Shown: piece by piece, positions 2,244 through 17,134 of the stretch
Layout of the letters: every line of letters starts with the position of its first letter
Numbering within the stretch: the stretch's first letter is position 1
Sequence record: MH791411.1
Origin: Escherichia phage Ecwhy_1
Length of the DNA stretch: 64,000 bases
Direction: 5' to 3' (one strand)
The notes under the pieces: generated by a model
Databases searched by the model: none
What the model was told of the DNA's origin: nothing
Seen by the model: the letters and a program-made list of their open reading frames with translations, nothing else
Translations under genes and position numbers: made by a program

Positions 2244-2486
2244 TTACAGTACTTTACTATCAATGGCAACTACTTTTTTAACATTAACGGCGTGGATCAC
2301 TTCCTTCGTGTTTTTAGTACTGAATACTTTCGCCGCTCCTTGTTCGACCGTGATACGATAGCGACCATTAACATCAACCATATTAATAAAGTCCGGCGTG
2401 CTGAATGGTGTTGTTTTACATTTGAGTACTGTTAACAGTTCCACCAGCGATGTAGTTTCTTTGATACGTTTTTCTAAAGTAATCAT
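2244..2486 (-). CDS. hypothetical protein (80 aa)
   Basis: track ORF trimmed to MITLEKR; upstream 19 codons are promoter read-through. Confidence 0.5.
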   Translation of the reverse strand: MITLEKRIKETTSLVELLTVLKCKTTPFSTPDFINMVDVNGRYRITVEQGAAKVFSTKNTKEVIHAVNVKKVVAIDSKVL

Positions 2487-2543
2487 TTTGTTTCCCCCGT
2501 GTTGGTATGTACATATAGTACTAAAACATTTGAGTACTGTCAA

Positions 2544-2762
2544 TTAGATAATATTATATTTCTTAAAATAAAATGCGTCCTGTGTTGGTTGATACTCGAT
2601 ACCGTTACCGTTATTGACTTCAACTAATAAACCTTTGTCAATTAGTTTTTTAATAGTACGATACCCTTGTTGAAAATTGGTAAAATGTGAATCATTACGA
2701 AAGGTATAACCGTGCTTAACTGCTTCATCAATAGTTTTCTTTTCGATTTTAGATAATTTCAT
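2544..2762 (-). CDS. hypothetical protein (72 aa)
   Basis: track ORF trimmed to MKLSKIEK; promoter-leader duplicated from the 2244 gene. Confidence 0.5.
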   Translation of the reverse strand: MKLSKIEKKTIDEAVKHGYTFRNDSHFTNFQQGYRTIKKLIDKGLLVEVNNGNGIEYQPTQDAFYFKKYNII

Positions 2763-2815
2763 TTTGTTTCTCCCGTGTTGGTATGTGTACATAGTACTAA
2801 AACAATTGAGTACTG

Positions 2816-3070
2816 TCAACGTGATATTAGTTTTATTTTCTTATTGTATTGTTGATGCTCATAAAGGTTTATCTTTCCTGTGTTCTCGATTACTATCCTG
2901 TTGTTAGTGTCCACGTCGATTACACGCAGTTTCCCGTTGCTTAACTTCCTAGGTAATAGGTTACCATTAATAAACTCATTAGCAAGCTGTACGGCCTTTG
3001 TGATGATTCTCTGAGGTGCTTTATAGTGTACCCGTAAGATGTTATCTTTATATAGTTGAACCTTAATCAT
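2816..3070 (-). CDS. hypothetical protein (84 aa)
   Basis: ORF track; ATG after AGGACAAACAAA. Confidence 0.55.
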   Translation of the reverse strand: MIKVQLYKDNILRVHYKAPQRIITKAVQLANEFINGNLLPRKLSNGKLRVIDVDTNNRIVIENTGKINLYEHQQYNKKIKLISR

Positions 3071-3084
3071 TTTGTTTGTCCTAT

Positions 3085-3115
3085 AAAAAAGGCGGGAACT
3101 GATCCCGCCGTGTTG
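3085..3115 (-). terminator. rho-independent terminator candidate
   Basis: GGCGGGATCAGTTCCCGCC hairpin followed by TTTTTT on minus strand after stop of 3132 gene. Confidence 0.6.
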
Positions 3116-3131
3116 TTAGTACTGCAAGTTA

Positions 3132-3527
3132 TTAGATAACCTGGCGGCGTTTACTGTATACTGTTACACGATTACCCTTACGATCATGTCGGATCTCTTT
3201 CTGGTTGCGAATCAGTTCACTTGGACGCTTAAGGTTTGCCAGGTGATCCGCGTGAGTCCATGCGGTGTGGTTTACCTGTACTTTGATATCAGAATCAGCG
3301 ATAAACTCATCTTGTGCGTCAAGTATTGCCGCCAGCATATCCGCTCGTTTTAGTTCTGCTGCTGTCAGTACTGGCTCAGGTGAATTCACAATATCAGAGA
3401 TTTCTTTGAACTGTACGGCCCAGCGTTGACCTTTCGTTGCATCTTTGCCCATGTCTTTAAATGCTGCTCCTTCCTCGCGTGCAACAATACGGGCAGCTTC
3501 ACGGGTAGCGTAGAATTTAGTAATCAT
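3132..3527 (-). CDS. hypothetical protein; paralog of 16542-16808
   Basis: shared KYFATREQARIAAR..GATFKDMG..DRKGNRVTVY; start set at MITKF after AGGA. Confidence 0.6.
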   Translation of the reverse strand: MITKFYATREAARIVAREEGAAFKDMGKDATKGQRWAVQFKEISDIVNSPEPVLTAAELKRADMLAAILDAQDEFIADSDIKVQVNHTAWTHADHLANLKRPSELIRNQKEIRHDRKGNRVTVYSKRRQVI

Positions 3528-3622
3528 GGTATACATCCTATTAGTTGAGTTAGTACTACAAGTTAGAGTCTATTATAAAGTACTATCTGGGCAATGTCAA
3601 ATAGTACTTTAAATGGATTCTA

Positions 3623-3946
3623 TTACATGTCTTTCTTACGTTTTACATCGTGGTAGCGAACTGTTATTTCTTTGTTGATCTCTTCCTCGATGCGATGAAT
3701 AACTTTTTCTTTCGGGTTGAAACCTATAACGGTTTCTTTAATGATCTCCAAGCCCGTGTATTCGCCTTGTGTACCGTAACCGTATGTAAAGGTTTCGTGT
3801 CCCAGGTCTTCCCAGCGGTCGCCAATTAACGCAGACACGTAGCAAGAGTGGTAAGTATTGCCGTGTGAATCAGTCCACCGATTAACGTTAATGTCAAAGG
3901 AGGTTACAATTTTCAATTCTACTTTCTGGGCAAGGATCATAGCCAT
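3623..3946 (-). CDS. hypothetical protein; paralog of 10466-10789
   Basis: shared RWTDSxGNTYHSCxVS..TYGY..VKRKKD; ATG start. Confidence 0.65.
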   Translation of the reverse strand: MAMILAQKVELKIVTSFDINVNRWTDSHGNTYHSCYVSALIGDRWEDLGHETFTYGYGTQGEYTGLEIIKETVIGFNPKEKVIHRIEEEINKEITVRYHDVKRKKDM

Positions 3947-4033
3947 TTTTATTTCTCTCTCTTTGTTAGGAGGGGAACCATTCCCCTCGCTTGATGTAAA
4001 CTATTATACAGTACTAAGATACTTTGTCAATAC
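3947..4033 (-). promoter_or_regulatory. PeSL-like cassette
   Basis: TTGACA-17-TATAAT + GGGGAATGGTTCCCC hairpin. Confidence 0.65.
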
Positions 4034-4216
4034 TTATTTTTTGGAAAGTTTACGCATTAATTCTACGCTTTCTTGTGAACGTTTTGCTACCTGGCAAGCT
4101 GTATGGGCAGTAAACATTTTTGTATAGTCTGACGCTTTGCCACCGAACCGAGCGGCACGTTCACGGGCACTTGGAACTAATACTATTTCTTTATTACAGA
4201 TAGTGCACTTAGCCAT
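4034..4216 (-). CDS. hypothetical small Cys-containing protein (60 aa)
   Basis: trimmed to MAKCTICNK; CxxC near N-terminus. Confidence 0.55.
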   Translation of the reverse strand: MAKCTICNKEIVLVPSARERAARFGGKASDYTKMFTAHTACQVAKRSQESVELMRKLSKK

Positions 4217-4304
4217 TTTTATTTCTCTCTCTTTGTTAGGAGGGGAACCGTTTCCCCTCACTTGATGTAAACTATTATACAGTACTAAGATACTTTGTCA
4301 ATAC
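4217..4304 (-). promoter_or_regulatory. PeSL-like cassette
   Basis: TTGACA-17-TATAAT + GGGGAAACGGTTCCCC hairpin. Confidence 0.65.
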
Positions 4305-4580
4305 TTAAGTATTGTAAATGTCGTGAATAGTGATAAAGTTTTTACGACCGTAAACATGTAAATCAGTATCAATGTAGTGCTTATCAAGTACATCCTCGAC
4401 GCTTAAAGACGTGTCGTGAATATCTTCATAAAATTGTGGATCAACAATCGTGCTTAAGTCATCTGGCGTTAACTTATCGTTAAGGCATTGAACCGCCTGG
4501 ATATCTGCTTCACGTTTCCATTGTTCCAGATTAGTAGTCAGTACTTGCTCGATTTCGTTAGCTGTAAGTAAAGTCCGCAT
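4305..4580 (-). CDS. hypothetical protein (91 aa)
   Basis: ORF track; ATG after AAGGAAAC. Confidence 0.6.
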   Translation of the reverse strand: MRTLLTANEIEQVLTTNLEQWKREADIQAVQCLNDKLTPDDLSTIVDPQFYEDIHDTSLSVEDVLDKHYIDTDLHVYGRKNFITIHDIYNT

Positions 4581-4600
4581 TTTAATGTTTCCTTATCAGT

Positions 4601-4740
4601 GGTTGATGTAAGTATTATACTCGTTTACTTTCTATTGTCAAACTATTTTATCAGGGGAGTTTTTCGTATGTCTTACTCCTGGACTACTTAACGGGGTTAC
4701 TTATTTCGTTCCCCGTCCTGATGTAAAACATTATACTTGA
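4601..4740 (-). repeat. duplicated structured leader, copy A (copy B at 15826-15960)
   Basis: ~140 bp near-identical; two hairpins (ACGGGG..CCCCGT; CAGGAGT..ACTCCCCTG) between tandem promoters. Confidence 0.6.
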
Positions 4741-4784
4741 TTCTAAGTACAATGCAAGTACTTTTTTAAAAATAGTTTTCAGTA

Positions 4785-4895
4785 CTAGCCACCAGCAAAC
4801 AATAGATACATTTATGCACCCTGTGGGCTAATTTGTTTCTATGCGTATATAATAGCAAAGGGACTGACCGGAGTCAATCCCTTTTTCAAATATTT
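4785..4895. repeat. conserved ~120-bp intergenic element, copy 2
   Basis: GCACCCTGTGGGC box + GGGACTGACCGGAGTCAATCCC hairpin + T-run. Confidence 0.6.
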
Positions 4896-5045
4896 TTAAA
4901 CTTCTTTCGGGTTGCGATATGTGATAGCGTTCGGGTACATTTGTTTAATGTTATTCCATGCCTGGTTAACATTATAACCACTTGATCGAATCAGTTGGTT
5001 ATTACCGACACCTTGAAACACTACTTCAAATAAGAATTCTTTCAT
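4896..5045 (-). CDS. hypothetical small protein (49 aa; below track cutoff)
   Basis: ATG overlaps stop of 5042 gene (ATGA); reads MKEFLFEVVFQGVGNNQLIR. Confidence 0.4.
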   Translation of the reverse strand: MKEFLFEVVFQGVGNNQLIRSSGYNVNQAWNNIKQMYPNAITYRNPKEV

Positions 5046-5215
5046 GCTTTCACCTCTCGATCTGCTTTGCCTTTACGCCAGGCCGTTGCTAATTGTTCGC
5101 GTTGCCATAAGTCGAGTGATACGTAAAGTTTTGCATTATCACCCTTCGGATATTCGCCAGTAGTACCAATCCGATAAAACAGATCTTTCAGTACTGTTAA
5201 TTCTACCTGGACCAT
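5042..5215 (-). CDS. hypothetical protein (57 aa)
   Basis: trimmed to MVQVELT after hairpin read-through. Confidence 0.5.
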   Translation of the reverse strand: MVQVELTVLKDLFYRIGTTGEYPKGDNAKLYVSLDLWQREQLATAWRKGKADREVKA

Positions 5216-5302
5216 TATACTTTCCTCTTTGTTAGGAGGGGAACTATTCCCCTTCCGATATAAAACATTATACACTTTATTCAGTACTGTGCAAGTACTT
5301 TT
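5216..5302 (-). promoter_or_regulatory. PeSL-like cassette
   Basis: promoter + GGGGAATAGTTCCCC hairpin. Confidence 0.6.
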
Positions 5303-5515
5303 TTAATCTTTCAGCCAATGATCCTGAATGAATTTTTCACCGGAACCTTGCTGCATTGATTGTAACAGACGTTCGCGATGAGCGGCGGCGAATTGCTCAG
5401 TACTATGCGTTACACCTGGTTGATATCTGGATTCACCATTTGGGGCGATGTATTGTACATCCCACGGTTTTTCGTTAGTATCAGACCATTTACGAACGAT
5501 TAGTTGACCTTGCAT
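5303..5515 (-). CDS. hypothetical protein (70 aa)
   Basis: ORF track; ATG start. Confidence 0.6.
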   Translation of the reverse strand: MQGQLIVRKWSDTNEKPWDVQYIAPNGESRYQPGVTHSTEQFAAAHRERLLQSMQQGSGEKFIQDHWLKD

Positions 5516-5598
5516 TTTTCTTTCCTCTTAGTGGGGAGAATCATTTCTCCCCTTCATGTAAACTATTATACAGTACTGGATTGCATTGTCAATAGTTT
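5516..5598 (-). promoter_or_regulatory. PeSL-like cassette
   Basis: TTGACA-17-TATAAT + GGGGAGAAATGATTCTCCCC hairpin. Confidence 0.65.
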
Positions 5599-5922
5599 TT
5601 ATTCACCTTGTTTGAATATAGTTTTCTCCATTGATTCCATGATTGCAACCAATACAGCATGGATCTCACTTAACGCGGCATCACTAAAAGCATTAATGAA
5701 TAGGCAATCATTCTCGCGAATATTTTTAATGTACTTATCAGCAGTGGTTGCGAATTCATTCAACGGCAGATCAAATGCTTTATCCCATAATGGATGGCGT
5801 AACTGTAACAGTACTGGATTATCACGATCACCAGGGGAAAACGTACCAGTGATGAAACATACGCCCGGAATACTTTCGAACTGGCAACGGACTTCCTTTG
5901 TGATAGTAGTATGAATGTACAT
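5599..5922 (-). CDS. hypothetical protein (107 aa)
   Basis: ORF track; GAGGA SD. Confidence 0.6.
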   Translation of the reverse strand: MYIHTTITKEVRCQFESIPGVCFITGTFSPGDRDNPVLLQLRHPLWDKAFDLPLNEFATTADKYIKNIRENDCLFINAFSDAALSEIHAVLVAIMESMEKTIFKQGE

Positions 5923-5949
5923 TTATTGTTATCCTCTATTAAATTAATA

Positions 5950-6138
5950 TTACAGTTTATGAATTAATTCTTTATCTAAGCGATAGCGTACATTATTAAT
6001 GGTAACAGCATTATTTTTAATGCTACGCTGTACGGGTCCACCAGCAATAACAAACGTTGCTTTATTGCCCCGAACAATGATAGCACTTCCAGGATTACCG
6101 AAATCATCTTGTACTAAAATACTTGATAAGTTTTCCAT
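5950..6138 (-). CDS. hypothetical protein (62 aa)
   Basis: ORF track. Confidence 0.55.
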   Translation of the reverse strand: MENLSSILVQDDFGNPGSAIIVRGNKATFVIAGGPVQRSIKNNAVTINNVRYRLDKELIHKL

Positions 6139-6216
6139 TTTTATTTCCTCTTAGTAGGGGAAGATGTTTCCCCTTGATGCAAGTACTATAACAGTACTGA
6201 AAACTAAATGCAAGTA
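6139..6216 (-). promoter_or_regulatory. PeSL-like cassette
   Basis: promoter + GGGGAAACATCTTCCCC hairpin. Confidence 0.6.
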
Positions 6217-6573
6217 CTATGATAAAATCATGATAGGATATTCACTATCTATCAATACCTCGAATCCGAAACCTTCGTACCATTCTTTAAGATTAAAGGC
6301 GTTATCTTCTCCCGTATCGCATTCTAAGATGATACAATCTGAATCATCGGCGGCATCAATAAAGGCATTCATTAATTCGTTACCTTCACCATTGCCCCGA
6401 CTATCAGGATCAACATAAAGAGAATCAATAAACGCTACACGGTCATAATCAAGATCCGGTGCAATGATTCCACGTTTAACAAACCAGTACTGCAATTGTG
6501 CTACTTTGCCCTGTACTTGATAGCCAGTGATCTCGCCATTGTCAGTAGTACGCGTGATATGTTGTATTCCCAT
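6217..6573 (-). CDS. hypothetical protein (118 aa)
   Basis: ORF track; TTGACA-17-TATAAT promoter and GAGGAT SD upstream. Confidence 0.6.
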   Translation of the reverse strand: MGIQHITRTTDNGEITGYQVQGKVAQLQYWFVKRGIIAPDLDYDRVAFIDSLYVDPDSRGNGEGNELMNAFIDAADDSDCIILECDTGEDNAFNLKEWYEGFGFEVLIDSEYPIMILS

Positions 6574-6636
6574 GATTACTATCCTCAGTTAAGATATAAA
6601 ACATTATACACTATCTTTCAGTACTGTCAATACTTT

Positions 6637-6894
6637 TTATCTCATAGATCTATGCCAACAATTACGCGGATCTCTTTTAAAAGTACTATCATGATCCTCC
6701 TGGCAAGTAATACAATACATGCACCCTATAACGGCCTGGCGTCGATTCTCAGGGATTTTATCGCCGCAGTCGAGGCAATGTACAAGTGATTCTCTTTGTG
6801 CGTTAATTTGCTTTCTAGCGTGGTTAACGGCGGCCTGAATCACTGCATGAATCTCGTCTTGTTCGGCCCCGTCTTTCGCGTATCCTACTGCCAT
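6637..6894 (-). CDS. TraR/DksA-family C4 zinc-finger protein (85 aa)
   Basis: CLDCGDKIPENRRQAVIGCMYCITC = CxxC-x17-CxxC with conserved IPxxRR. Confidence 0.65.
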   Translation of the reverse strand: MAVGYAKDGAEQDEIHAVIQAAVNHARKQINAQRESLVHCLDCGDKIPENRRQAVIGCMYCITCQEDHDSTFKRDPRNCWHRSMR

Positions 6895-7056
6895 TATTTT
6901 AACCTCATTATAAAAATACTATAGTACTGTAATGCTACAATAATACTACTAGTGTTTATCTTATTCAAACCATATGATACTACATATCCACCAGCATTAC
7001 CACGAATAGTAACGCCTTTGTACTGTCTATATAAATTCAACTGCGTATATTGCCTT

Positions 7057-7129
7057 TGATCAAGAATTGATCAGAATTATACGCCTTATGCTAAATTGAT
7101 CCAGTACTTTTTTGATCATTTATTGATCG
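7057..7129. promoter_or_regulatory. cluster of five TGATC(A) / GATC sites
   Basis: five GATC within ~73 bp in an intergenic region. Confidence 0.5.
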
Positions 7130-7223
7130 ATATTATATAGTTACATTTGTGCACCCTATGGGTTAGTGACGTTCTCGTCTTGATGTAAGTATTATGCCAG
7201 TACTGGAGGATATTGTCAATAGA

Positions 7224-7421
7224 TTATTTTAATTTTTTTCTGTCATTGATTAATGCTTTCAGTACTATACTAATAACTTGCAATGATTCATCAATGACAA
7301 TGAAATTATTCTCTTTCATTAGATGATAGTTACCATTGATTGTATATTCTAACGAGTACTGTTTACGTTTAATTTTTGATAATGTTTCTATTTGTTTTTG
7401 TACTGATTTCATGCTAATCAT
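7224..7421 (-). CDS. hypothetical protein (65 aa)
   Basis: track ORF starts at TTG; ATG (MISMKS) two codons downstream. Confidence 0.5.
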   Translation of the reverse strand: MISMKSVQKQIETLSKIKRKQYSLEYTINGNYHLMKENNFIVIDESLQVISIVLKALINDRKKLK

Positions 7422-7489
7422 TGTCAAACGTCCTGTAACGCATTCTAACGAGATAAACGGTTTAGTACTGGCATTGTATAGGGTAAATG

Positions 7490-7527
7490 ATTAAAGCCCA
7501 CCAGCGTTAACCAGTGGGCTATAATAT
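7490..7527 (-). terminator. rho-independent terminator candidate
   Basis: AGCCCACTGG..CTGGTGGGCT hairpin + T-run (minus). Confidence 0.5.
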
Positions 7528-8023
7528 TACATCTTGCGGATAATCTTAACAGTATCTTTCACCGATTTACCGTTTTGCTGACATTGCTCGATCATCGCGT
7601 ATTGTTCTGCGGTCAGATCCTCGCCAGTTTTTGCCAGTACTGCGTCGATGAATGAATCCAGTGCGATCATTTTATTTCTCTCTTAGGTTAAGTTAACTAC
7701 TGTTTATAAAACTTATTATACAGTACTATCAATCTATGTCAATAGTACTGGTAATATATTTTAGCGGTAGTCGTCGTATGCTTTATTCACCTGGCGAATA
7801 TAACTTTCAAAGGCTTCGTCTACCGTTTCATACTCCCGAACATAATCACCATATGAAACTACATACATACCTTTTTGATCTTCAAACGTCATGATGATAG
7901 AATCCAGACCAACGATTTCAGTTTTTGCGATGATAGCCATTTTTTAATTCCTTAGTAGTGTAGTTGATAAAAGTTATTATGTCAGTACTATCAAACTATG
8001 TCAATAGTACTGTGATAATATTT

Positions 8024-8236
8024 TTAGTTAATGATAGTCAGTGTAAAATTGTAATCACCGCAGCGATATAGCACGTTATTCCCAAATGTCCCAACTAATC
8101 GCACATCACACAAAACGCCGGTTTTTTCTTTTACTTCCTTGATACTTGTAACTCCTGTAATATCTTTATTAAAGTATTCATGATCTGAAAATAAAACTTG
8201 TTTTGCATTTTTTAATTTCGACCGGATATTAGCCAT
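8024..8236 (-). CDS. hypothetical protein (70 aa)
   Basis: ORF track; PeSL-like cassette upstream. Confidence 0.6.
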   Translation of the reverse strand: MANIRSKLKNAKQVLFSDHEYFNKDITGVTSIKEVKEKTGVLCDVRLVGTFGNNVLYRCGDYNFTLTIIN

Positions 8237-8760: not shown

Positions 8761-8784
8761 TCTACAAATACTTTTAAAATAGTT

Positions 8785-9126: not shown

Positions 9127-9279
9127 TCATTTTTTAGCCTGAAAGTAATGTTTAATTTGAGCGGCGGTCAGTGCACAATTACGCAGGAAGTTTTCTGTAT
9201 AACTGCGGCGAGTACTGAAAGAGAATTGACCTTTGCCGTTACCGATAGTAACATCAAACCGAGCGTTGTATTGTTTCAT
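9127..9279 (-). CDS. hypothetical protein (50 aa)
   Basis: trimmed to MKQYNARFD. Confidence 0.45.
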   Translation of the reverse strand: MKQYNARFDVTIGNGKGQFSFSTRRSYTENFLRNCALTAAQIKHYFQAKK

Positions 9280-9363
9280 TTTGATTCTCCTGTTATTGGG
9301 GAGAATCATTTCTCCCCTTCATGTAAAACATTATACAGTACTAAAAACTAATTGCAAGTACTA
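9280..9363 (-). promoter_or_regulatory. PeSL-like cassette
   Basis: promoter + GGGGAGAAATGATTCTCCCC hairpin. Confidence 0.6.
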
Positions 9364-9507
9364 TTTTTTAGATTTACGCAAACTTTCTACCATCTCAGGA
9401 GTAAGGCCCGGCGGGTAGGAAACTACTTCATCAACGAAACGTAAAGGGAATACCCCAGCGAAAGGTGAACGTGCTTTCTTAGTATTACTCTTTTTTGATG
9501 CTTTCAT

Positions 9508-10878: not shown

Positions 10879-11091
10879 TTACTTACTTTCTTTCGCTGCT
10901 TTGTGCGTTGCCACTGCCATAACCACATCAGCACGAACAAAGTTTTTAACCGTGTCGCTGTAATAATTGATCGCTTCATCAATATCTGCGAACATCCGAT
11001 ACATACCGCACCACGATACTTTATAACCTGCTTTCACTTCTTCCAGCTTAACCAGTGATTTGTTAACTTTGATTTTAGTAATGATAGCCAT
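10879..11091 (-). CDS. hypothetical protein (70 aa)
   Basis: ORF track; upstream promoter cassette identical to the one at 10790-10878. Confidence 0.6.
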   Translation of the reverse strand: MAIITKIKVNKSLVKLEEVKAGYKVSWCGMYRMFADIDEAINYYSDTVKNFVRADVVMAVATHKAAKESK

Positions 11092-11319: not shown

Positions 11320-11400
11320 TTTCCTTGTAGTGGGGAGAACCATTTTCTCCCCTTGATGTAATGTATTATACTTTATTCGATTTACTTTGCAAGTACTTTT
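11320..11400 (-). promoter_or_regulatory. PeSL-like cassette
   Basis: promoter + GGGGAGAAAATGGTTCTCCCC hairpin; precedes unannotated ~47-aa Cys-containing ORF (MKTCQCGQK..) at ~11176-11319. Confidence 0.5.
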
Positions 11401-11628
11401 TTAATTTAATTCATCAAGGCAAAGGATACGCTCAACGCCCAAATCAGTTAAACTAATCGACGGCACTTGATAGGTTTCAATGTATGCTACACTTGCCCAC
11501 TGACCGAACTCATTAACGGCCCAGGTATTCATTGCATTTTGCAATTCCGCACCTTCCTTGTTGGTAATGACTGCAACTACTTGTTCGTTGCCAGTAGTAC
11601 CAGATACGCGAGTAATGATAATAGCCAT
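11401..11628 (-). CDS. hypothetical protein (75 aa)
   Basis: trimmed to MAIIITRV. Confidence 0.55.
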   Translation of the reverse strand: MAIIITRVSGTTGNEQVVAVITNKEGAELQNAMNTWAVNEFGQWASVAYIETYQVPSISLTDLGVERILCLDELN

Positions 11629-11720
11629 TGTTTTGATTCCTTTGATTTGGAAGGAGAACCGTTTCCCCCTCTCGATGTAAAACATTATACGCTAATCTCT
11701 TAATCGTGCAAGTACTTTTT
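11629..11720 (-). promoter_or_regulatory. PeSL-like cassette
   Basis: promoter + GGGGGAAACGGTTCTCC hairpin. Confidence 0.6.
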
Positions 11721-11869
11721 ATTACTTTTTGCAAAATACTTTAAACGCTCTCAATCGCGTTCTTACAGCCTTAACGCCACCAGCTAGGGCAATGCATCAG
11801 ATAATCAGTTTAATGCGTTAGAATCGTTTCTAGGCGGTGCTGGTGGCATGGTAAACGATAAACACAAAA

Positions 11870-11913
11870 AAGCCCACCGTTTAAGGTGGGCTAGTGATTC
11901 AGTACTTTAATTG
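11870..11913 (-). terminator. rho-independent terminator
   Basis: GCCCACC-TTAAAC-GGTGGGC hairpin + TTTTTT on minus strand after stop. Confidence 0.7.
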
Positions 11914-12396
11914 TTATGCTTCAACTTTGCGATGAGATTCGATCCATTCCTCGCGAGTCATACCGCTGGCGTTAATCGCGTCCAGTACTACCGCAATGCA
12001 GTTACCACGCACCGGAATCAGATATTCTTCCCCGTTGTCCAGTACTACCGCTACGCGTTCCTGAATCCATTTTTTGGCTTTTACTTCTGGCTTGTCTTCC
12101 CCATACTTAACCGCCAGGGCTTTTTGTGCCATCTCTGTAACTACTTCCAGATCCAATCCAACTACTGCCGCCTGAATACTTTCGATTGTTGCTTGTAGTT
12201 CTGCTTCACGGGCCGCCTTTGCCGCTTCAATTTCTGCCGCTTTATTTGCTTGTAGTTCTTTCGCAGTACTGTACGCGATGTTAAAATTATTGCGTACCGC
12301 TTTCATGGTATCGTTATCCAGTTCAGCCAGGATCTCAGCCGCGACGTTAGTTTCATTTGCTACCAGTGCTTTGATGAATGATTTTACATTAGCCAT
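11914..12396 (-). CDS. hypothetical protein (160 aa), Ala/Glu-rich
   Basis: track ORF starts at TTG; ATG (MANVKSF) follows GAGGA SD. Confidence 0.6.
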   Translation of the reverse strand: MANVKSFIKALVANETNVAAEILAELDNDTMKAVRNNFNIAYSTAKELQANKAAEIEAAKAAREAELQATIESIQAAVVGLDLEVVTEMAQKALAVKYGEDKPEVKAKKWIQERVAVVLDNGEEYLIPVRGNCIAVVLDAINASGMTREEWIESHRKVEA

Positions 12397-12599
12397 TTTA
12401 TAAATCCTCAATTAAAGTTTAGTTTACGTTTATTAGTGTATCAAAGTTTTCTCGACGTGTCCAGTTTTTCGTTCGACTTACTGGCGGTCTACTTAGTGCT
12501 CCCCGTCTTGATGTAATACATTCTACGCTTTTCTGCGGTAATGTCAACTACTTTCTTAAAACTATTTTCAAAGTATCTCAGTACTACGATACTACAAAA

Positions 12600-12629
12600 A
12601 CAAAAAAGCCCACCAGGTGGGCTATGTAC
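12600..12629 (-). terminator. rho-independent terminator
   Basis: GCCCACC-TGGTGGGC hairpin + T-run (minus). Confidence 0.65.
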
Positions 12630-12860
12630 TTAATCAGTGAGTAAAATATTAAACACTTTACCATTTAACGTTATTGGTGCACTGCTACCAGGCACAAGAT
12701 CCGTTAGTATACCTGCAATCGCTTTATCATTGGCTACCTTTCCAGTGTCCAACAGTACTACAGTACTGATAAGATTAACGCTCGTTTCAATATCATAATG
12801 CACGGCGTTAAGTAGTTGTGTAGTACTGCTTTCGTTAAGTAAAACAATTCGCTTAGTCAT
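12630..12860 (-). CDS. hypothetical protein (76 aa)
   Basis: ORF track. Confidence 0.55.
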   Translation of the reverse strand: MTKRIVLLNESSTTQLLNAVHYDIETSVNLISTVVLLDTGKVANDKAIAGILTDLVPGSSAPITLNGKVFNILLTD

Positions 12861-12881
12861 GATGTTACCCCGTAGTATCTA

Positions 12882-13181
12882 TCAACGGCAATTAATAACG
12901 CCGGTATGAGTTACTTTCTCGGTATCCATTACAGTGACCGAACCGCGTTTAGCACTGGCATCATAATAAATTGTCGTGCTACCGTTTTCGTCTTCTTCAT
13001 GGAACGGGCCGTTTTTAAATGCTTCCGGCTGGATCTCTAAATCCTTTAATACAATCTCGCCAGTTCTTTCATCGGTCATTGCAACAGTGCACTGAATGAA
13101 TTTTTCACTACTTACATCTAATGACGCATTAACAGCGAAAGAGGAAACAGATAAAGCCAGGGCGATGATTGCAATTTTCAT
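12882..13181 (-). CDS. secreted hypothetical protein (99 aa)
   Basis: N-terminal signal-peptide-like MKIAIIALALSVSSFAVNAS. Confidence 0.6.
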   Translation of the reverse strand: MKIAIIALALSVSSFAVNASLDVSSEKFIQCTVAMTDERTGEIVLKDLEIQPEAFKNGPFHEEDENGSTTIYYDASAKRGSVTVMDTEKVTHTGVINCR

Positions 13182-13265
13182 TTGATTATCCTTAGTTACC
13201 AGGGGAAACCGTTTCCCCTTGCGATGTAAAATATTATACAGTACTAAAAACTAATTGCAAGTACT
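13182..13265 (-). promoter_or_regulatory. PeSL-like cassette
   Basis: promoter + GGGGAAACGGTTTCCCC hairpin. Confidence 0.6.
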
Positions 13266-13502
13266 TTATGATTTTTTATAAAACATTTCAGCAGTGATAT
13301 TTTTACCCGTTGGCTGTACTTTATCCAGAATTTTTTGATGCCCTGGTCGTCCAAAGGAATATGATCCGTAAACAGTAAACCAGTAGTTACCCTCAGTGTT
13401 TACATGTACAGCACAATAAGGAACACCACGCGATTCATCACTAGTAAAGTGTGATACCGTTCCCGTTACATTCGCAGACGTTGATTTGATTTGTTCGACC
13501 AT
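13266..13502 (-). CDS. hypothetical protein (78 aa)
   Basis: ORF track. Confidence 0.6.
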   Translation of the reverse strand: MVEQIKSTSANVTGTVSHFTSDESRGVPYCAVHVNTEGNYWFTVYGSYSFGRPGHQKILDKVQPTGKNITAEMFYKKS

Positions 13503-13580
13503 TTTCTTATTCCTTAGTTACCAGGGGAACCGCTCCCCCTATGCAAAACATTATACGCGTTTAAAAACTAATTGCAAGTA
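13503..13580 (-). promoter_or_regulatory. PeSL-like cassette
   Basis: promoter + GGGGGAGCGGTTCCCC hairpin. Confidence 0.6.
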
Positions 13581-13610
13581 TTTTAATAAAAAGTATTTGA
13601 AAAATAGTTG

Positions 13611-13680
13611 TTGACAAGTGCATCCAGTACTGGCATAATTACTACATCAAGACGAAACAGTCACTAACCCACCGGGTGCC
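13611..13680 (+). promoter_or_regulatory. plus-strand sigma70-type promoter + conserved box
   Basis: TTGACA-N17-CATAAT on plus strand, ACCCACCGGGTGC box ~30 nt downstream. Confidence 0.5.
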
Positions 13681-13745
13681 GAGATCCGTCTATTAAATGA
13701 TTCAGTACTGAAAAAGTAACGGGGAGTTATTATCTCCCCGTGTTG

Positions 13746-13967
13746 TTATTTTGTAAGGTATAAACAGAAGTCGCCTTTATTTGCTACGCCGCCAGTGTAA
13801 CGCGAGGAATAGTTAGAAACGTCCTGGACTTCTGCTATTACCAGGGTATCATCATTCAATTCGTCGCAGAAGCAAACGGCTGGATCTTGTACGCCGATTT
13901 TGTCGGCATGTTCCCGCATAGATTTAACCAGTGCTTCCAGTTGGGAAAGAGTAGTGATATTAGCCAT
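13746..13967 (-). CDS. hypothetical protein (73 aa)
   Basis: trimmed to MANITTL. Confidence 0.55.
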   Translation of the reverse strand: MANITTLSQLEALVKSMREHADKIGVQDPAVCFCDELNDDTLVIAEVQDVSNYSSRYTGGVANKGDFCLYLTK

Positions 13968-14051
13968 TTTATTTTCCTCATTACCAGGGAGAACCATTTC
14001 TCCCTTTGATGTAAACCATTATACAGTACTGAAAACTAATTGCAAGTACTT
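13968..14051 (-). promoter_or_regulatory. PeSL-like cassette
   Basis: promoter + GGGAGAAATGGTTCTCCC hairpin. Confidence 0.6.
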
Positions 14052-14240
14052 TTAATTAAATTCCATAAAATCATTTTCAACGTGCACAACAATCTGATTA
14101 TTTTTAAAGGACGCAGAAAACTCTATACAATCATAAACCGCTTTTTCTGTTACCAGACTATGAGCACCAATCGGATTAATTGGGGATTGAATTGTTTCAA
14201 TCTCGTTACCTTGTTCATTAACGATTAAAATATTAAACAT
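14052..14240 (-). CDS. hypothetical protein (62 aa)
   Basis: ORF track. Confidence 0.5.
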   Translation of the reverse strand: MFNILIVNEQGNEIETIQSPINPIGAHSLVTEKAVYDCIEFSASFKNNQIVVHVENDFMEFN

Positions 14241-14279
14241 TGCCGTTACTCCTGGATAGTGTTAACTCGATATAAAGTA

Positions 14280-14462
14280 TTATACGCCTTTATTGCTTAG
14301 TGTCCAGTGATCACGCATCATACGCCCCGCACGATCCCAGCTAGTAGGCATGGGTATGCCTTGCAATTCGTTAGGGGAGATCTCGACCTCGATCCCTACA
14401 TCAATAACAGTCATTCCAGCTTTCGCAGCTTGCTCGCGGATAACCTCAGATAATGTTGTCAT
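14280..14462 (-). CDS. hypothetical protein (60 aa)
   Basis: ORF track; leader duplicated from the 14052 gene. Confidence 0.5.
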   Translation of the reverse strand: MTTLSEVIREQAAKAGMTVIDVGIEVEISPNELQGIPMPTSWDRAGRMMRDHWTLSNKGV

Positions 14463-14536
14463 GATTAAAGCTCCTGGATAGTGTTAACTCGATATAAAGT
14501 ATTATACAGTACTGAAAACTAATTGCAAGTACTTTT

Positions 14537-14797
14537 TTAATATTGTTTGTCGTCGTCTTCCTCGATGAATTGACCGACGAAATGATCTACTTTCGCTTTG
14601 AGGCTTTTATAATCTTCTTCTACTTCCGTTAAACGTTCCTGGTAGTATTCCAATGCTTCAAGATACGCCGCCTCAGCAGTTTTTGCACGCATAGCTAAAT
14701 TCATTCCACGCGTTTCATCAAATAGCCAATAACCATCGGTGCACTGGCTAATAGATAATGACTTGCTTAGTACTGTATAGCTAATTACTTTACTCAT
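14537..14797 (-). CDS. hypothetical protein (86 aa)
   Basis: ORF track; GAGGG SD after GGCGGGTAATAGTTCCCGCC hairpin. Confidence 0.6.
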   Translation of the reverse strand: MSKVISYTVLSKSLSISQCTDGYWLFDETRGMNLAMRAKTAEAAYLEALEYYQERLTEVEEDYKSLKAKVDHFVGQFIEEDDDKQY

Positions 14798-14854
14798 TAG
14801 ATAACCCTCAGTAAAGGCGGGAACTATTACCCGCCATTATCTCAGTACTGAATA

Positions 14855-15094
14855 TTACATTCCAACCATTGCAGCACGGATCGCAGTAGTGCTATACTTA
14901 AAGCCGTCCGGCGTTGTAGTAGTACCGTTGGCTTTTAATCTGCGGTACATACATTCCGCAGCAATATCTTTAGTTCTACTTTGTGCGATGCAACTTTGAG
15001 CAAGCCGATACAATGACTCACCGTTATTAATCCAAAGGCTTACATTCCAATGAGTTTTGTTTTTGTGTCCGTTGTAAGTTTTAGTACTAGCCAT
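14855..15094 (-). CDS. hypothetical protein; paralog of 16895-17134
   Basis: shared HKNKTHWNVSLWINN..PDGFKYSTTAIRAAMVGM; trimmed to MASTK. Confidence 0.6.
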   Translation of the reverse strand: MASTKTYNGHKNKTHWNVSLWINNGESLYRLAQSCIAQSRTKDIAAECMYRRLKANGTTTTPDGFKYSTTAIRAAMVGM

Positions 15095-15184
15095 TTTTAA
15101 ATCCTCGTTTGAGCGGGGAACCACTCCCCGCCTCGATATAAAGTATTATACGCTTTTAAACTTAGTTTGCAAGTACTTTTTAAA
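15095..15184 (-). promoter_or_regulatory. PeSL-like cassette
   Basis: promoter + CGGGGAGTGGTTCCCCG hairpin. Confidence 0.6.
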
Positions 15185-15796
15185 TTAATATTCGATTGAT
15201 TCCACTACGCCATCAATAACATTGAATTGATACTCGTTACCCTCAATCAGTGCCGTAATGTTTTCAGTAGTGAATTGATCCTCATATGCATTCTCTAAAT
15301 CACGGTACAACTTGCGGGACAATTCACGAATAGTTTCAGTGAGTAGTTCCTCAAGCTCATTAACTAACGTTTCTTGTTTTGCGGTTAAATCAGTGTAAGC
15401 CGATTCAATGTACCCGCTTACAGTATTCTCATGCGAGTAGTGGGAGTGCGAACGTTTTACACTCATCGCCAAATCATCTTCATTCAGCAAGTGACGGATT
15501 GAGCGATACTTAGTTAATGCTCTTACCTTGCGTAAAAACTTCACTGCGTCAACGTGGTCAGTACTGATTGATGCACCGTCACCCTGGGACCAAAAACCAC
15601 TGAATTGTATTTCAGCGTCATTAATGCCATATTCCGGTAGTACTGTTTCTTTATAGTATTCAATTTCACTTTCAGAAAAATAATTGTCGTTTGAGTTTTT
15701 TTCACGTTCCCGAACCAGTTCGATAGCTGACGTTTGTTGTTCTGCGTTCAATTCAGAAAAAGCCATAACATAAGTAGTAGTAGTGATAGTTTTCAT
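15185..15796 (-). CDS. hypothetical protein (203 aa)
   Basis: ORF track; ATG after GAGGGT SD. Confidence 0.65.
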   Translation of the reverse strand: MKTITTTTYVMAFSELNAEQQTSAIELVREREKNSNDNYFSESEIEYYKETVLPEYGINDAEIQFSGFWSQGDGASISTDHVDAVKFLRKVRALTKYRSIRHLLNEDDLAMSVKRSHSHYSHENTVSGYIESAYTDLTAKQETLVNELEELLTETIRELSRKLYRDLENAYEDQFTTENITALIEGNEYQFNVIDGVVESIEY

Positions 15797-15825
15797 TTTG
15801 TAACCCTCATTCAGTAGTTGATGTA

Positions 15826-15960
15826 AGTATTATACGCTTTTAAAAACATTTGTCAAACTATTTTATCAGGGGAGTTTTTCGTGTGCCTTACTCCTGGGCT
15901 ACTTAACGGGAAGTTACTTATTTCGTTCCCCGTCCTGATGTAAAACATTATACGCCTTTA
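15826..15960 (-). repeat. duplicated structured leader, copy B
   Basis: near-identical to 4601-4740. Confidence 0.6.
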
Positions 15961-16020
15961 AACATAGTTTGCAAGTACTTTTTAAAAATAGTTTTCAGTA
16001 CTGAATAGTAAAAAAAAGTA

Positions 16021-16081
16021 TTGACAGCATTATCAAGTACTGGTATAATATACCCCATGACAACAGCTAACCCACCGGGTG
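16021..16081 (+). promoter_or_regulatory. plus-strand consensus sigma70 promoter + conserved box
   Basis: TTGACA-N17-TATAAT (perfect consensus), ACCCACCGGGTGC box downstream. Confidence 0.6.
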
Positions 16082-16223
16082 CACAATTGTAACTATACTA
16101 AACTAATTTTTCTATAGATACACTCCCGCACCCTATGGGCTACGGCTTATCTGCCAATGAATACATTATGCCAGTACTGACAAAATAAGTCAATACCGGC
16201 AATTGTAAAGATTTGTAAACTGC

Positions 16224-16460
16224 TTATACTGCAATCGCGTCCAGGCTATAATAATAATAAGTGCCGTATTGGTGTACTTTATTACCTTTTATTTCAGTAC
16301 TGAATGAATCCGAACGGTTTGCATATGATGTTAATTTAAAGTACTTTGATTTGCTGATACGTTGCCATACACCACAGATCCGCTGTAAGTAAGTAGTTTT
16401 ATTCGTGGTAGTATCTTTTACGGTTTTAACTTCAGTCATATACATATTAGTCATTTTCAT
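16224..16460 (-). CDS. hypothetical protein (78 aa)
   Basis: ORF track; GGAG SD. Confidence 0.55.
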   Translation of the reverse strand: MKMTNMYMTEVKTVKDTTTNKTTYLQRICGVWQRISKSKYFKLTSYANRSDSFSTEIKGNKVHQYGTYYYYSLDAIAV

Positions 16461-16541
16461 TACTCCAGGTTATAGGCGGGAAGAGTTCCCGCTCTCGATG
16501 TAAAACATTATACGCCATTAAACATAGTTTGCAAGTACTTT
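16461..16541 (-). promoter_or_regulatory. PeSL-like cassette
   Basis: promoter + GCGGGAACTCTTCCCGC hairpin. Confidence 0.6.
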
Positions 16542-16808
16542 TTATTCAAGTACTGCAATCTTTTTAGTACGGTACACGGTCACGCGGTTGCCCTTTCGGT
16601 CGAGCTTTATTTCTACCACTCGACGCGATACACTATCGGGACTTTTTAAGGCCGCTAACCAGTACTGTAATGATCTGGCGGTACTACGCTTTACAATGGC
16701 CCAACGTTTACCACGTTCCGATTGTACGCCCATATCTTTAAACGTTGCCCCGTCCTGGCGTGCGGCGATCCGAGCTTGTTCACGCGTCGCAAAATACTTA
16801 ATTTTCAT
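16542..16808 (-). CDS. hypothetical protein; paralog of 3132-3527
   Basis: trimmed to MKIKYFATREQ. Confidence 0.6.
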   Translation of the reverse strand: MKIKYFATREQARIAARQDGATFKDMGVQSERGKRWAIVKRSTARSLQYWLAALKSPDSVSRRVVEIKLDRKGNRVTVYRTKKIAVLE

Positions 16809-16894
16809 GCTGTTGCCCTTATCGTTGGTGTATGAATAAAACACTATTATAAAGTACTATCGCAAAAAAATGATAGTACTTTAAATAAATTCTA

Positions 16895-17134
16895 TTACAT
16901 TCCAACCATCGCCGCACGGATCGCAGTAGTGCTATATTTGAATCCGTCCGGTGTTTTATCTTGTCCAGTCTGTTCTAAAAATAACATCATATGACGGGCC
17001 GCATCATTGCGATTAGTGCTATCGTTAATAAAGTCCTGGGCCAACCGATACAATCCCTCATCGTTATTAATCCAAAGGCTTACATTCCAATGAGTTTTGT
17101 TTTTGTGACCTAAGAACATTTTTGATTTAGCCAT
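16895..17134 (-). CDS. hypothetical protein; paralog of 14855-15094
   Basis: trimmed to MAKSKMF. Confidence 0.6.
   Translation of the reverse strand: MAKSKMFLGHKNKTHWNVSLWINNDEGLYRLAQDFINDSTNRNDAARHMMLFLEQTGQDKTPDGFKYSTTAIRAAMVGM

Follow-up and report, generated by a model that had tools for sequence, protein, structure and literature searches.

Integron gene cassettes recombine at attC x attI through the IntI integrase. Bacillus phage SPO1 carries a host-takeover module in its terminal redundancy, and coliphage T5 has its pre-early genes in terminal repeats; to our knowledge these two have been described as expression modules, without cassette-mediated gene flux as a defining feature. Promoter-early stem-loops (PeSLs) have been described in the T4-type phages RB49/phi1, T4/PST and KVP40/nt-1 (Arbiol et al. 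2010, PMC2839356; Comeau et al. 2014, PMC4122927). The Rak2-like phage CBB has RpoD-like promoters with UP elements in its early region and terminal repeat (PMC5259590), and in the related phage PA5oct the genes of the direct terminal repeat (DTR) form an early, highly transcribed class that depends on host RNA polymerase, and the DTR also yields abundant non-coding RNAs (PMC7318152).

The window analysed here is a 64,000-nt stretch of Escherichia phage Ecwhy_1 (MH791411.1), an Asteriusvirus (PBECO4/121Q-like jumbo coliphage), and its positions 1-19327 (minus strand) are part of a ~21-kb DTR. The junction with unique sequence, 19327/19328, was mapped via positions 351571-354268 of the fEgEco12 record; the DTR part of the window is collinear with positions 1-19373 of that record, whose DTR is 20,993 bp, and the annotated ‘Direct Terminal Repeats’ of vB_Ec-M-J (1-21525) enclose the window's early array. 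That array holds ~49 small minus-strand genes (141-17647), with 73% of the region coding. Positions 1-19327 are probably an early (‘host-takeover’) gene array within the long DTR, its early timing being predicted.

The minus strand has 11 sigma-70 promoters that match the consensus perfectly (12/12) and ~40 predicted at 10/12 or better, most of which belong to a single family of 90-100-nt cassettes with at least 26 copies in register; a profile search returned ~30 strong matches, on the minus strand only and within 1-19000 only. The repeat is more extensive than the initial annotation indicated. The cassette runs from the upstream gene's stop codon through an A/T-rich tract, a -35 hexamer (TTGCAA or TTGACA), a 16-17-nt spacer and TATAAT to a conserved initial transcribed sequence (GTTTTACATCRAG), an 8-9-bp hairpin, a Shine-Dalgarno sequence (SD) and ATG, and it precedes nearly every small gene or gene pair in the array. 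Over 50-100 nt, identity among its copies is 60-100%. The functional constraint that acts on any strong promoter explains this in part, but the similarity reaches beyond the -35 and -10 hexamers into the spacers, the initial transcribed sequence, the hairpin loops and the upstream stop codon. For 13 of 30 cassettes the closest relative is a physically adjacent one (null mean 2.0, P about 0.0005). The twelve most similar pairs all front unrelated genes, so near-identical leaders mark the insertion or deletion of a single gene and not a duplication. The cassettes are predicted to be active as promoters, and early.

The leader hairpin is present in 22 of the 27 leaders, beginning 11-14 nt past the -10, and has a G/C stem with one purine and one pyrimidine arm; no T-run follows it in any hairpin-bearing leader among the 27. 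There are 15 distinct stems, and compensatory changes are seen at four stem positions; the hairpin would sit at the mRNA's 5' end, and we infer a functional role for it. In three copies (1614-1587, 4884-4857 and 8894-8867) a 12-bp stem lies over the -35, and the cassette classes of 2544 and 10879 have no hairpin, yet take part in gene-content events. The palindrome AGTACT is ~13-fold over-represented, with no explanation offered here; it lies at fixed positions within cassettes and is under purifying selection.

Genes 2244-2486 and 2544-2762 had been described as sharing an almost identical promoter-leader in front of differing coding bodies, and they do. Both leaders read TTGACA-N17-TACTAT, then ...ACATACCAACACGGG(A/G)GAAACAAAATG, and agree without gaps at 55 of 60 nt (2819-2760 versus 2543-2484); by local alignment score, the upstream flanks rank 15th of 1176 gene pairs, above what chance would give. 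The two proteins show no similarity, the sole blastp match between long versions of the ORFs being the translated leader, and 2544-2762 has no match in Pfam or PHROG. In phage E9.1 exactly gene 2544-2762 is missing, and a single chimeric copy stands in place of the two leaders. A gene lying between two near-identical cassettes, such as this one, is the trace left by a recent insertion or, just as well, a substrate on which deletion can act.

Gene-content differences were scored between this one window sequence and seven relatives, several of which share events by descent, and 18 of 18 insertion, deletion or replacement events have their ends inside a promoter-leader cassette or no more than 30 nt from a gene end, a count that overstates targeting because breakpoints at gene ends would be enriched anyway by selection against truncated genes. 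Nine events are flanked by a direct cassette repeat with 46-108 nt of overlap; the other nine, with 0-14 nt, could be illegitimate, or older with decayed homology. In the four events aligned base by base the relative has a single chimeric cassette, and the crossover site varies within it: at the -35 for 2544, upstream of that element for 10879, between the spacer and a point past the hairpin for 691, and between -35 and -10 for 14052. The block 14059..15091 has one boundary immediately upstream of a -35 and the other at the ATG that starts 14855, and vB_Ec-M-J has an additional gene inserted at cassette 17135..17231. Genes inserted in relatives are unrelated ORFans missing from the window, not copies of window genes, and the slot taken by the family of EcMJ_002 and fEgEco12 g07 varies between phages. 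The swapping of early genes through cassettes, suggested by the initial annotation, is thus well supported by these alignments (18/18 boundaries, nine repeat-flanked events and four chimeric junctions), and comparison with related phages finds gene gain and loss at cassettes, including the loss of 2544-2762 in E9.1.

Table 1. Coordinates of the genes, cassettes and variable segments discussed in the text (window positions)
Feature	Position	Strand	Details
Promoter-leader of 2544-2762	2760..2819	-	TTGACA 2819-2814, N17, TACTAT 2796-2791, SD GGGAGA, ATG at 2762
72-aa ORFan, variable gene	2544..2762	-	between near-identical leaders; absent from E9.1
Promoter-leader of 2244-2486	2484..2543	-	TTGACA 2543-2538, N17, TACTAT 2520-2515, ATG at 2486
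80-aa ORFan	2244..2486	-	3' of second leader copy
Main cassette, reference copy	9277..9385	-	A/T tract, AGTAC-TTGCAA, N16 with AGTACTG, TATAAT, GTTTTACATGAA
Main cassette, reference copy (continued)	9277..9385	-	hairpin GGGGAGAA-ATGA-TTCTCCCC, then SD, ATG
Variable gene	691..1098	-	cassettes 602-695, 1096-1189; absent from E9.1, phAPEC6
Variable gene	4034..4216	-	cassettes 3948-4041, 4219-4312; absent from phAPEC6
Variable gene	10879..11091	-	95-nt direct cassette repeat 10807-10901/11105-11199; absent from fEgEco12, JNE01, G17
Two variable genes (14052-14240, 14280-14462)	14052..14462	-	cassettes 14009-14063, 14492-14546; absent from JNE01, vB_Ec-M-J, phAPEC6
Four-gene block	14059..15091	-	one unrelated 165-nt gene (g07) instead in fEgEco12 and E9.1
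Paralog 1a, 131 aa	3132..3527	-	phrog_8127
Upstream module of 3132	3528..3632	-	block ATGTAATAGAAT..ATTTAAAGTACTAT, perfect promoter TTGACA-N17-TATAAT (3600-3572), hairpin absent
Paralog 1b, 88 aa	16542..16808	-	phrog_8127
Upstream module of 16542	16809..16905	-	ATGTAATAGAAT..ATTTAAAGTACTAT + GATAGTACTTTATAATAG (-10 at 16851-16846); -35 lost, 2-nt deletion
Paralog 2a, 107 aa	3623..3946	-	phrog_6246; cassette 3947-4048, promoter 4030-4003, hairpin 3988-3970
Paralog 2b, 107 aa	10466..10789	-	phrog_6246; cassette 10790-10889, TTGACA-N17-CATAAT 10859-10831, hairpin absent
Paralog 3a, 79 aa	14855..15094	-	DUF7249, phrog_871; accessory, absent from fEgEco12, E9.1
Cassette of 14855	15095..15190	-	TTGCAA-N16-TATAAT 15172-15145, hairpin 15132-15112
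Paralog 3b, 79 aa	16895..17134	-	DUF7249
Cassette of 16895	17135..17231	-	TTGCAA-N16-TATAAT 17213-17186, hairpin 17174-17154

Whole modules of gene plus cassette are shared beyond the genus, with rV5-like phages. The rV5-like phage W70 (Vequintavirinae) has eight segments in common with the window at 69-88% nucleotide identity and in a different order, including a nearly identical stretch of >100 nt across an intergenic cassette; the cassette-gene-cassette unit of 10879..11091 is 84.6% identical to a unit in W70. In phiWec190 (Phapecoctavirus) the 16895 gene is found at ~90-100% nucleotide identity per 30-80-nt segment, with a different leader in front. Throughout the Rak2-like clade the cassette is conserved at 75-84%, inside terminal repeats.

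Paralogs were sought by comparing every minus-strand ORF with every other by blastp and by an all-against-all search over the whole window. The three pairs noted initially are real, with E values from 1e-17 to 6e-36 and one PHROG per pair: 14855-15094 and 16895-17134 (66% over 80 aa, E=6e-36; both phrog_871, Pfam DUF7249), 3623-3946 and 10466-10789 (39% over 107 aa, E=3e-28; both phrog_6246), and 3132-3527 and 16542-16808 (35% over 125 columns of a gapped alignment, E=1e-17; both phrog_8127). The whole-window search gave no further paralogs within 1-19327. For 3132/16542, the shared upstream block begins at the upstream gene's stop codon and the two are mutual best matches; the family has two copies across Asteriusvirus and one in RaK2-like phages. 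The 14855/16895 pair has promoter and hairpin in common (upstream-flank rank 13 of 1176), and nucleotide identity is 89-90% at both ends and 39% mid-gene; it is a mosaic rather than a simple duplicate. For 3623/10466 no flank similarity rises above the family background (rank 214 of 1176), and the cassettes resemble those of their physical neighbours: that of 3623 (3947-4048) is closest to 4217-4312, and that of 10466 matches its next neighbour, 11105-11181, at ~99% over 77 nt. A shared downstream flank is absent in all three pairs, and all three duplications are old. The four statements of the initial annotation are correct where it placed them, with some start codons to refine, but its proposal that early genes were duplicated as promoter-plus-gene modules stands in part: nucleotide alignment recovers conserved upstream flanks for 3132/16542 and 14855/16895, but none for 3623/10466 and no downstream flank in any pair, and the duplications are old and one pair is a mosaic.

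We consider it likely that the cassettes are both early regulatory units and portable homology, and that recombination between them shuffles whole genes. They would drive strong transcription by host RNA polymerase and, given the length and level of their identity, would double as portable stretches of homology. Where two cassettes undergo ordinary homologous recombination, by presumed recombination enzymes, whole genes would be looped out, inserted, replaced or relocated with their regulation intact, whether within one genome, between the two DTR copies or between co-infecting phages with the same cassettes, including rV5-like phages; the three paralog pairs would be old by-products. It is unlikely that the leaders instead resemble each other merely as strong sigma-70 promoters, with paralogs arising independently of cassettes through ancient duplication and with illegitimate recombination filtered for intact genes. 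The background-level flanks of 3623/10466, the 35-66% identity of the paralogs, the genus-wide duplications and the overlap of at most 14 nt in half of the events would fit such a history, but it accounts poorly for likeness in spacers, initial transcribed sequence, hairpin loops and upstream stop codon, for the nine long direct repeats and four directly checked chimeric cassettes, for adjacent cassettes being far more alike than expected, or for entire cassette-gene-cassette units in common with an unrelated genus.

A hairpin kept at a fixed position by compensatory changes, AGTACT at its fixed and selected positions, and genes that behave as discrete units in differing slots might suggest an integron-like site-specific system in which the hairpin or AGTACT is the recombination site where a recombinase or nuclease encoded by the phage captures gene cassettes and cuts them out, as the PeSL authors speculated for GGGG...CCCC stems (PMC2839356). 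This we regard as very unlikely: crossovers fall in different parts of the cassette in the 2544, 10879, 691 and 14052 events, the 2544 and 10879 cassettes have no hairpin at all, and no recombinase was identified, short of a systematic scan of the window's proteins. Collapsed or mis-assembled repeats in short-read assemblies are a concern in a region rich in 50-100-nt repeats, since many public genomes are short-read and DTRs are often collapsed; such an artefact is nevertheless extremely improbable as the source of the indels, which recur in independently sequenced phages (10879 missing in three, 14054-14490 in three others) with clean junctions and intact reading frames and cassettes, while the repeats (at most 110 nt) are below typical read length and the replacements carry novel ORFs with proper starts.

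Among the known systems, SPO1 and T5 resemble the window in clustering small genes, their functions unknown, within a long terminal repeat; each unit has strong promoters of host type together with ribosome-binding sites, and these genes are the first to be expressed after infection, as is predicted here. Integrons likewise gain, lose and reorder single promoter-adjacent genes and have a folded imperfect palindrome per unit; the window's units, by contrast, each have their own promoter, and their crossovers are spread along the homology and not confined to one site; no integrase was identified, again short of a systematic protein scan. General homologous recombination appears to be at work, unlike in integrons. 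CBB and PA5oct share clade and genome location with the window and have RpoD-like promoters with UP elements before short hypothetical genes; the respective papers list promoters and paralogs but describe no repeated promoter-hairpin cassette family, no role at indel junctions and no rV5-like exchange (PMC5259590, PMC7318152). As for the PeSLs, no nucleotide similarity to T4-type phages was detected, and the window differs in belonging to the Rak2-like jumbo phage lineage, with the array in a 21-kb terminal repeat; its main-class hairpin is found in the transcribed leader, downstream of the -10, and has no T-run, whereas in PeSLs the hairpin mostly overlaps the -35 and -10 or lies between them, and it has been shown to terminate transcription. 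Yet the three window copies with a stem over the -35 are arranged as classic PeSLs, and both kinds of unit are intergenic composites that extend from the stop codon upstream to the SD/ATG downstream. In both, an A/T-rich tract is combined with a sigma-70 consensus early promoter and a stem-loop of the GGGG...CCCC type; both are dense in plastic regions of small ORFans, border indels or replacements between close relatives and contain the crossovers. The cassette shuffling found here matches PeSL modular shuffling, a mechanism already described for T4-type phages.

The region between 2244 and 17134, where the initial annotation proposed that early genes are duplicated and swapped as promoter-plus-gene modules, lies within the direct terminal repeat (DTR) of an Asteriusvirus genome. 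About 40 jumbo myophages of Escherichia coli and Salmonella (350-385 kb), members of the genus Asteriusvirus such as PBECO4, 121Q, G17, phAPEC6, fEgEco12, and E9.1, match window 2000-17500 at 91-98% identity and only 30-86% coverage, in many pieces. The region is collinear with positions 1-19373 of the record of fEgEco12, whose physical ends were determined experimentally and whose direct terminal repeats measure 20,993 bp (PMC13070987). It is also enclosed by the annotated 'Direct Terminal Repeats' (1-21525) of vB_Ec-M-J, and repeat gives way to unique sequence at window 19327/19328, so that the region falls entirely inside the repeat. The early array comprises about 49 genes (a list curated against the annotations of relatives), all small (47-203 aa), all on the minus strand, and mostly hypothetical. 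In PA5oct, a related phage, the terminal-repeat genes form a highly transcribed early class and infection requires host RNA polymerase (PMC7318152); by this precedent, and from the promoters described below, the Ecwhy_1 array would likewise be expressed early.

The near-identical promoter-leaders noticed before genes 2544-2762 and 2244-2486 are borne out, with 55 of 60 nt the same, TTGACA-N17-TACTAT in both, and unrelated proteins downstream; they prove to be one small class of a large repeat family. Repeat finding recovers at least 26 cassette copies in register, and a profile built from these gives about 30 strong sites, none of them on the plus strand or outside 1-19000. The sigma-70 promoters of the minus strand include 11 perfect 12/12 matches and about 40 that match at 10/12 or better, preceded by AAAAA(G)TAC tracts. 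Read in gene sense, the main cassette runs from the upstream gene's stop codon through an A/T tract to AGTAC-TTGCAA (or TTGACA), then through a 16-17 nt spacer, often ending in AGTACTG, to TATAAT and GTTTTACATCRAG, and finally through an 8-9 bp hairpin (e.g. GGGGAGAA-N3-5-TTCTCCCC) to the Shine-Dalgarno (SD) sequence and ATG. It fills intergenic spacers of 80-100 nt, between the stop codon upstream and the downstream SD or start. In several unrelated genes (see table) the similarity runs on into the first 5-6 codons (ATGGCTAATATCACTACT-like, M-A-N/I-I-T-T), so crossovers can land just within coding sequence; it is also the cause of spurious N-terminal blastp matches. A comparison of 1-20000 with Rfam, at an E cutoff of 1, returned just two chance-level matches (mir-1000 and an S15 leader), placing neither the cassettes nor the non-coding units described below in a known RNA family.

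A hairpin is present in 22 of 27 leaders, starting 11-14 nt past the -10, with stems of the GGGGAGAA/TTCTCCCC type; the 2544/2244 and 10466/10879 cassette classes have none. Compensatory changes distinguish the 15 different stems: GC/AT in pair 4, GC/CG in pair 6, and others in pairs 7 and 8. The hairpin structure is therefore under selection. By the canonical sequence rule these hairpins would not be intrinsic terminators: none of the 22 in the leaders has a T-run after it, and a terminator scan calls none of them, finding four or five ordinary terminators elsewhere on the minus strand. We therefore read the hairpin as an mRNA 5'-end structure, for which we infer a role most likely as a stabilizer, with attenuation of read-through as the alternative.

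Synteny in related phages, suggested as a check in the initial annotation, provides the clearest view of what the cassettes do. Window 1-19600 was aligned by blastn with its counterparts in seven relatives (fEgEco12, E9.1, JNE01, WPEC3, G17, vB_Ec-M-J, and phAPEC6), and chaining of the alignments yielded 18 distinct events of insertion, deletion, or replacement. The boundaries of all 18 lie in an intergenic cassette or no more than 30 nt from a gene end, in a region that is 73% coding. In nine events the flanking alignments overlap by 46-108 nt, meaning that the variable segment is bracketed by a direct cassette repeat. For four of the events (see table), three-way alignment reveals that the shorter genome has a single, chimeric cassette, which follows the upstream copy in its upstream part and the downstream copy in its downstream part. 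The event in E9.1 that removes gene 2544-2762 makes the two flagged leaders the recombination substrates on either side of a gene that only some isolates carry. Each of the four events has its crossover point in another part of the cassette, and such dispersed switch points are the signature of homologous rather than site-specific recombination; an integron-like system, with one fixed crossover position, is contradicted by the four differing intervals. In addition, 13 of 30 cassettes are most similar to that of their physical neighbor, compared to 2.0 expected (P about 0.0005), as single-crossover insertion or local conversion would produce. Genes exclusive to the relatives are ORFans lacking a homolog in the window, and the family of EcMJ_002 and fEgEco12 g07 occupies different slots in different phages. 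Separately, the vB_Ec-M-J homolog of gene 15185-15796 carries an in-frame 63-nt tandem duplication at its 5' end (675 nt compared to 612 nt).

Coordinates of features in and beside the terminal repeat (window positions)
Feature	Position	Strand	Remark
Paralog pair 3132/16542	3132-3527; 16542-16808	-	
Paralog pair 3623/10466	3623-3946; 10466-10789	-	
Paralog pair 14855/16895	14855-15094; 16895-17134	-	
Cassette-like gene start	13950-13982		
Cassette-like gene start	11074-11106		
Cassette-like gene start	11611-11643		
Cassette-like gene start	15077-15109		
Cassette-like gene start	15779-15811		
Cassette-like gene start	10368-10400		
Chimeric event	gene 2544-2762		absent from E9.1
Chimeric event	gene 10879-11091		absent from fEgEco12
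Chimeric event	gene 691-1098		absent from E9.1
Chimeric event	genes 14052-14462		absent from JNE01
63-nt duplication	15747-15813		14375-14424 in vB_Ec-M-J
Non-coding unit	1437-1627	-	
Non-coding unit	4581-4895	-	
Non-coding unit	7041-7223	-	
Non-coding unit	8675-8896	-	
Non-coding unit	15797-16223	-	
Non-coding unit	about 17950-18140	-	
8-bp tandem array	18421-18519		about 12 degenerate copies
Tandem paralog array	19630-24013	-	17 genes of about 60-70 aa
Tandem paralog array	24344-39599	+	twelve consecutive genes of about 380 aa

The three paralog pairs (named by the lower coordinate of each gene) are genuine: 14855/16895 shares 66% identity over 80 aa (E=6e-36; DUF7249), 3623/10466 shares 39% over 107 aa (E=3e-28), and 3132/16542 shares 35% (E=1e-17). 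Each pair falls within one PHROG (871, 6246, or 8127), and the repeat holds no further paralogs. For the eight proteins of the paralog pairs and the two flagged leaders, Pfam and PHROG assignments comprise DUF7249 and these three PHROGs, all of unknown function, and give no functional lead. The duplications are old: the 3132 family is present twice throughout Asteriusvirus and once in RaK2-like Klebsiella phages, and the 3623 family is restricted to Asteriusvirus.

Whether the paralogs share flanks as well was judged from nucleotide alignments with 260-nt flanks, from an all-against-all scoring of the 110 nt upstream of the 49 genes (1176 pairs), and from a comparison of 60 nt downstream. The answer differs by pair. 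Sharing beyond the promoter-family background is found for 14855/16895, which have promoter and hairpin in common (rank 13 of 1176). It is weak for 3132/16542, whose upstream block, ATGTAATAGAAT..ATTTAAAGTACTAT...GATAGTACTTTATAATAG, starts at the stop codon of upstream genes that are themselves unrelated, and is more conserved than the coding sequence; the two blocks are mutual best matches, yet rank only 112 of 1176, and the 16542 copy has lost its -35. It is absent for 3623/10466 (rank 214 of 1176), whose cassettes are closest to those of the physical neighbors 4034 and 10879. The top twelve upstream-flank pairs all precede unrelated genes, and the 60-nt downstream flank is common to no paralog pair. 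Of the proposed cassette-mediated duplication and swapping, then, only part is supported: swapping, gain, and loss through cassettes stand, on the 18 events and the chimeric cassettes, while duplication of promoter-plus-gene modules is reduced to a minor and old outcome of that process. Genes inserted in relatives were tested as copies of window genes and are not, which further counts against duplication as the main outcome. Within the coding sequence, the 14855/16895 pair is a mosaic, with 89-90% nucleotide identity at nt 31-100 and 181-240, compared to 39% at nt 101-180. The two DUF7249 proteins have conserved ends, GHKNKTHWNVSLWINN... and ...TPDGFKYSTTAIRAAMVGM (about 90% at the nucleotide level), around a center of about 26 aa that is unrelated in nucleotide sequence (39%), which suggests segment replacement or diversifying selection in a fixed frame.

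Exchange extends beyond the genus. Megablast also matches rV5-like and phi92-like coliphages of 135-150 kb. W70 (Vequintavirinae) carries eight window segments at 69-88% nucleotide identity in a different order, several with flanking cassettes; one stretch of more than 100 nt is nearly identical, beginning at the close of a gene and crossing promoter and hairpin to enter the following gene. The 16895 gene is also present in phiWec190 (Phapecoctavirus), at about 90-100% nucleotide identity per 30-80-nt segment; this similarity ends about 10 nt short of the ATG, and the two leaders differ. The cassette itself recurs at 75-84% identity in terminal repeats across the Rak2-like clade (RaK2, K64-1, Muenster, Munch, Serratia BF, Erwinia pEa_SNUABM_47, and Yersinia fHe-Yen9). 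We consider it very improbable that the Rak2-like DTR is a dedicated cross-genus gene-capture platform in which a phage-encoded factor stimulates cassette recombination by recognizing the leader hairpin and/or the palindrome AGTACT; if it were, the array would be a targeted exchange system and not a passive substrate of general recombination.

AGTACT is 5-20-fold enriched in regions sampled from the Rak2-like clade and is selectively maintained. It is the commonest hexamer in window 1-64000 (280 copies compared to 22 +/- 5 expected from dinucleotide shuffles), densest in 1-24000 and often within CAGTACTG (67 copies). Intergenic DNA of the early regions has 12-15 per kb, and coding DNA, in all three frames, 2.7-3.8 per kb compared to about 0.35 expected. 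In early promoters the hexamer abuts the -35 and -10 at fixed positions, and it is kept in 92-100% of cases across four relatives, compared to 73-84% for other hexamers. Its enrichment is 4.7-fold in PBECO4 core genes, 9.8-fold in RaK2, and 20-fold in GAP32, and much less in rV5-like phages (1.3- to 2.6-fold). We found no mention of it in the open-access literature on the jumbo phages RaK2, GAP32, PA5oct, and 121Q.

Also in the repeat is a non-coding unit of about 190 nt that occurs six times and lacks an ORF. Each copy is equipped with a promoter of its own, either TTGACT-N17-TATTAT or TTGACA-N17-CATAAT, after which comes an invariant CCCAYAGGGTGC..A.TGTATCTAT; a 12-bp hairpin, AAAGGGATTGACTCCGGTCAGTCCCTTT, encloses the -35 of three copies. 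A consensus fold of all six yields just a weak 7-bp stem with no covariation, and there is no Rfam match. These units may be small early RNAs or protein-binding sites; abundant ncRNAs are reported from the PA5oct DTR (PMC7318152). Some 800-900 bp inside the repeat boundary, in an almost gene-free 1.6 kb (17650-19327), is a tandem array of a degenerate 8-bp unit (TAGCCGTC / CATCCAGC), which could be a binding array tied to the genome end, packaging, or replication. Just outside the repeat are two tandem paralog arrays, the one on the minus strand falling into three related groups (of 9, 6, and 2 genes). Paralogy there contrasts with the mere three pairs among the 49 genes inside.

Cassette-mediated gene flux explains the gene-by-gene differences in DTR content among Asteriusvirus isolates that are otherwise 95-99% identical, which is relevant because many such isolates are proposed for therapy. 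The variable single-gene units are candidates for host-range or anti-defense functions, and the cassette offers a defined, portable promoter-leader of predicted high strength. The general picture of phage mosaicism is unchanged, and a phage genomicist will not be surprised.

For Rak2-like phages, RpoD-like promoters and paralogs have been reported in the early region (PMC5259590); in the open-access literature we found neither the cassette family nor its part in gene flux described for Rak2-like phages, and no mention of promoters in the Asteriusvirus papers (fEgEco12, Sharanji, UE-S1, and phAPEC6). The closest known system is the promoter-early stem-loop (PeSL) of T4-type phages, a repeated early sigma-70 promoter plus stem-loop that bounds ORFans in hyperplastic regions and serves as a crossover point (PMC2839356, PMC4122927). 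Its stem-loop, typically a G-tract pairing with a C-tract, varies in where it sits relative to the promoter, with five subclasses, including one downstream of the -10 (PMC2839356). Termination or attenuation of transcription by the stem-loop, and excised mini-circles of gene plus cassette, are further features of PeSLs. Like PeSLs, the cassettes have near-consensus sigma-70 promoters with A/T tracts upstream, an adjacent G/C stem-loop (in the 22 leaders, and as a 12-bp stem over the -35 in three copies), and a unit with the upstream stop codon at one end and the downstream SD or start codon at the other. They too are concentrated in a hyperplastic region of small ORFans, to which all strong copies are confined, with indel and replacement borders at the units (18 of 18 at cassettes or gene ends) and crossovers inside them. 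All the PeSL-defining features that can be checked in sequence are shared, except homology and the placement of the hairpin and its T-run: cassettes and T4-type units have no sequence homology, blastn with a cassette retrieves no T4-type phage, its matches being confined to Rak2-like jumbo phages plus a few that are rV5-like, and the main cassette hairpin lies in the transcribed leader without a T-run. Judged by sequence, the cassettes are an analogue, or at most a very distant relative, of the PeSLs and belong to another repeat family. That regulatory cassettes allow modular shuffling was already known from T4-type phages; what is new, and well supported, is the occurrence of such shuffling in jumbo-phage terminal repeats, with evidence of exchange between genera. 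The mechanism is now seen in giant phages of a distinct group, within the terminal repeat that carries their presumed first-expressed genes, and the same cassettes connect these phages to rV5-like phages of the same host.
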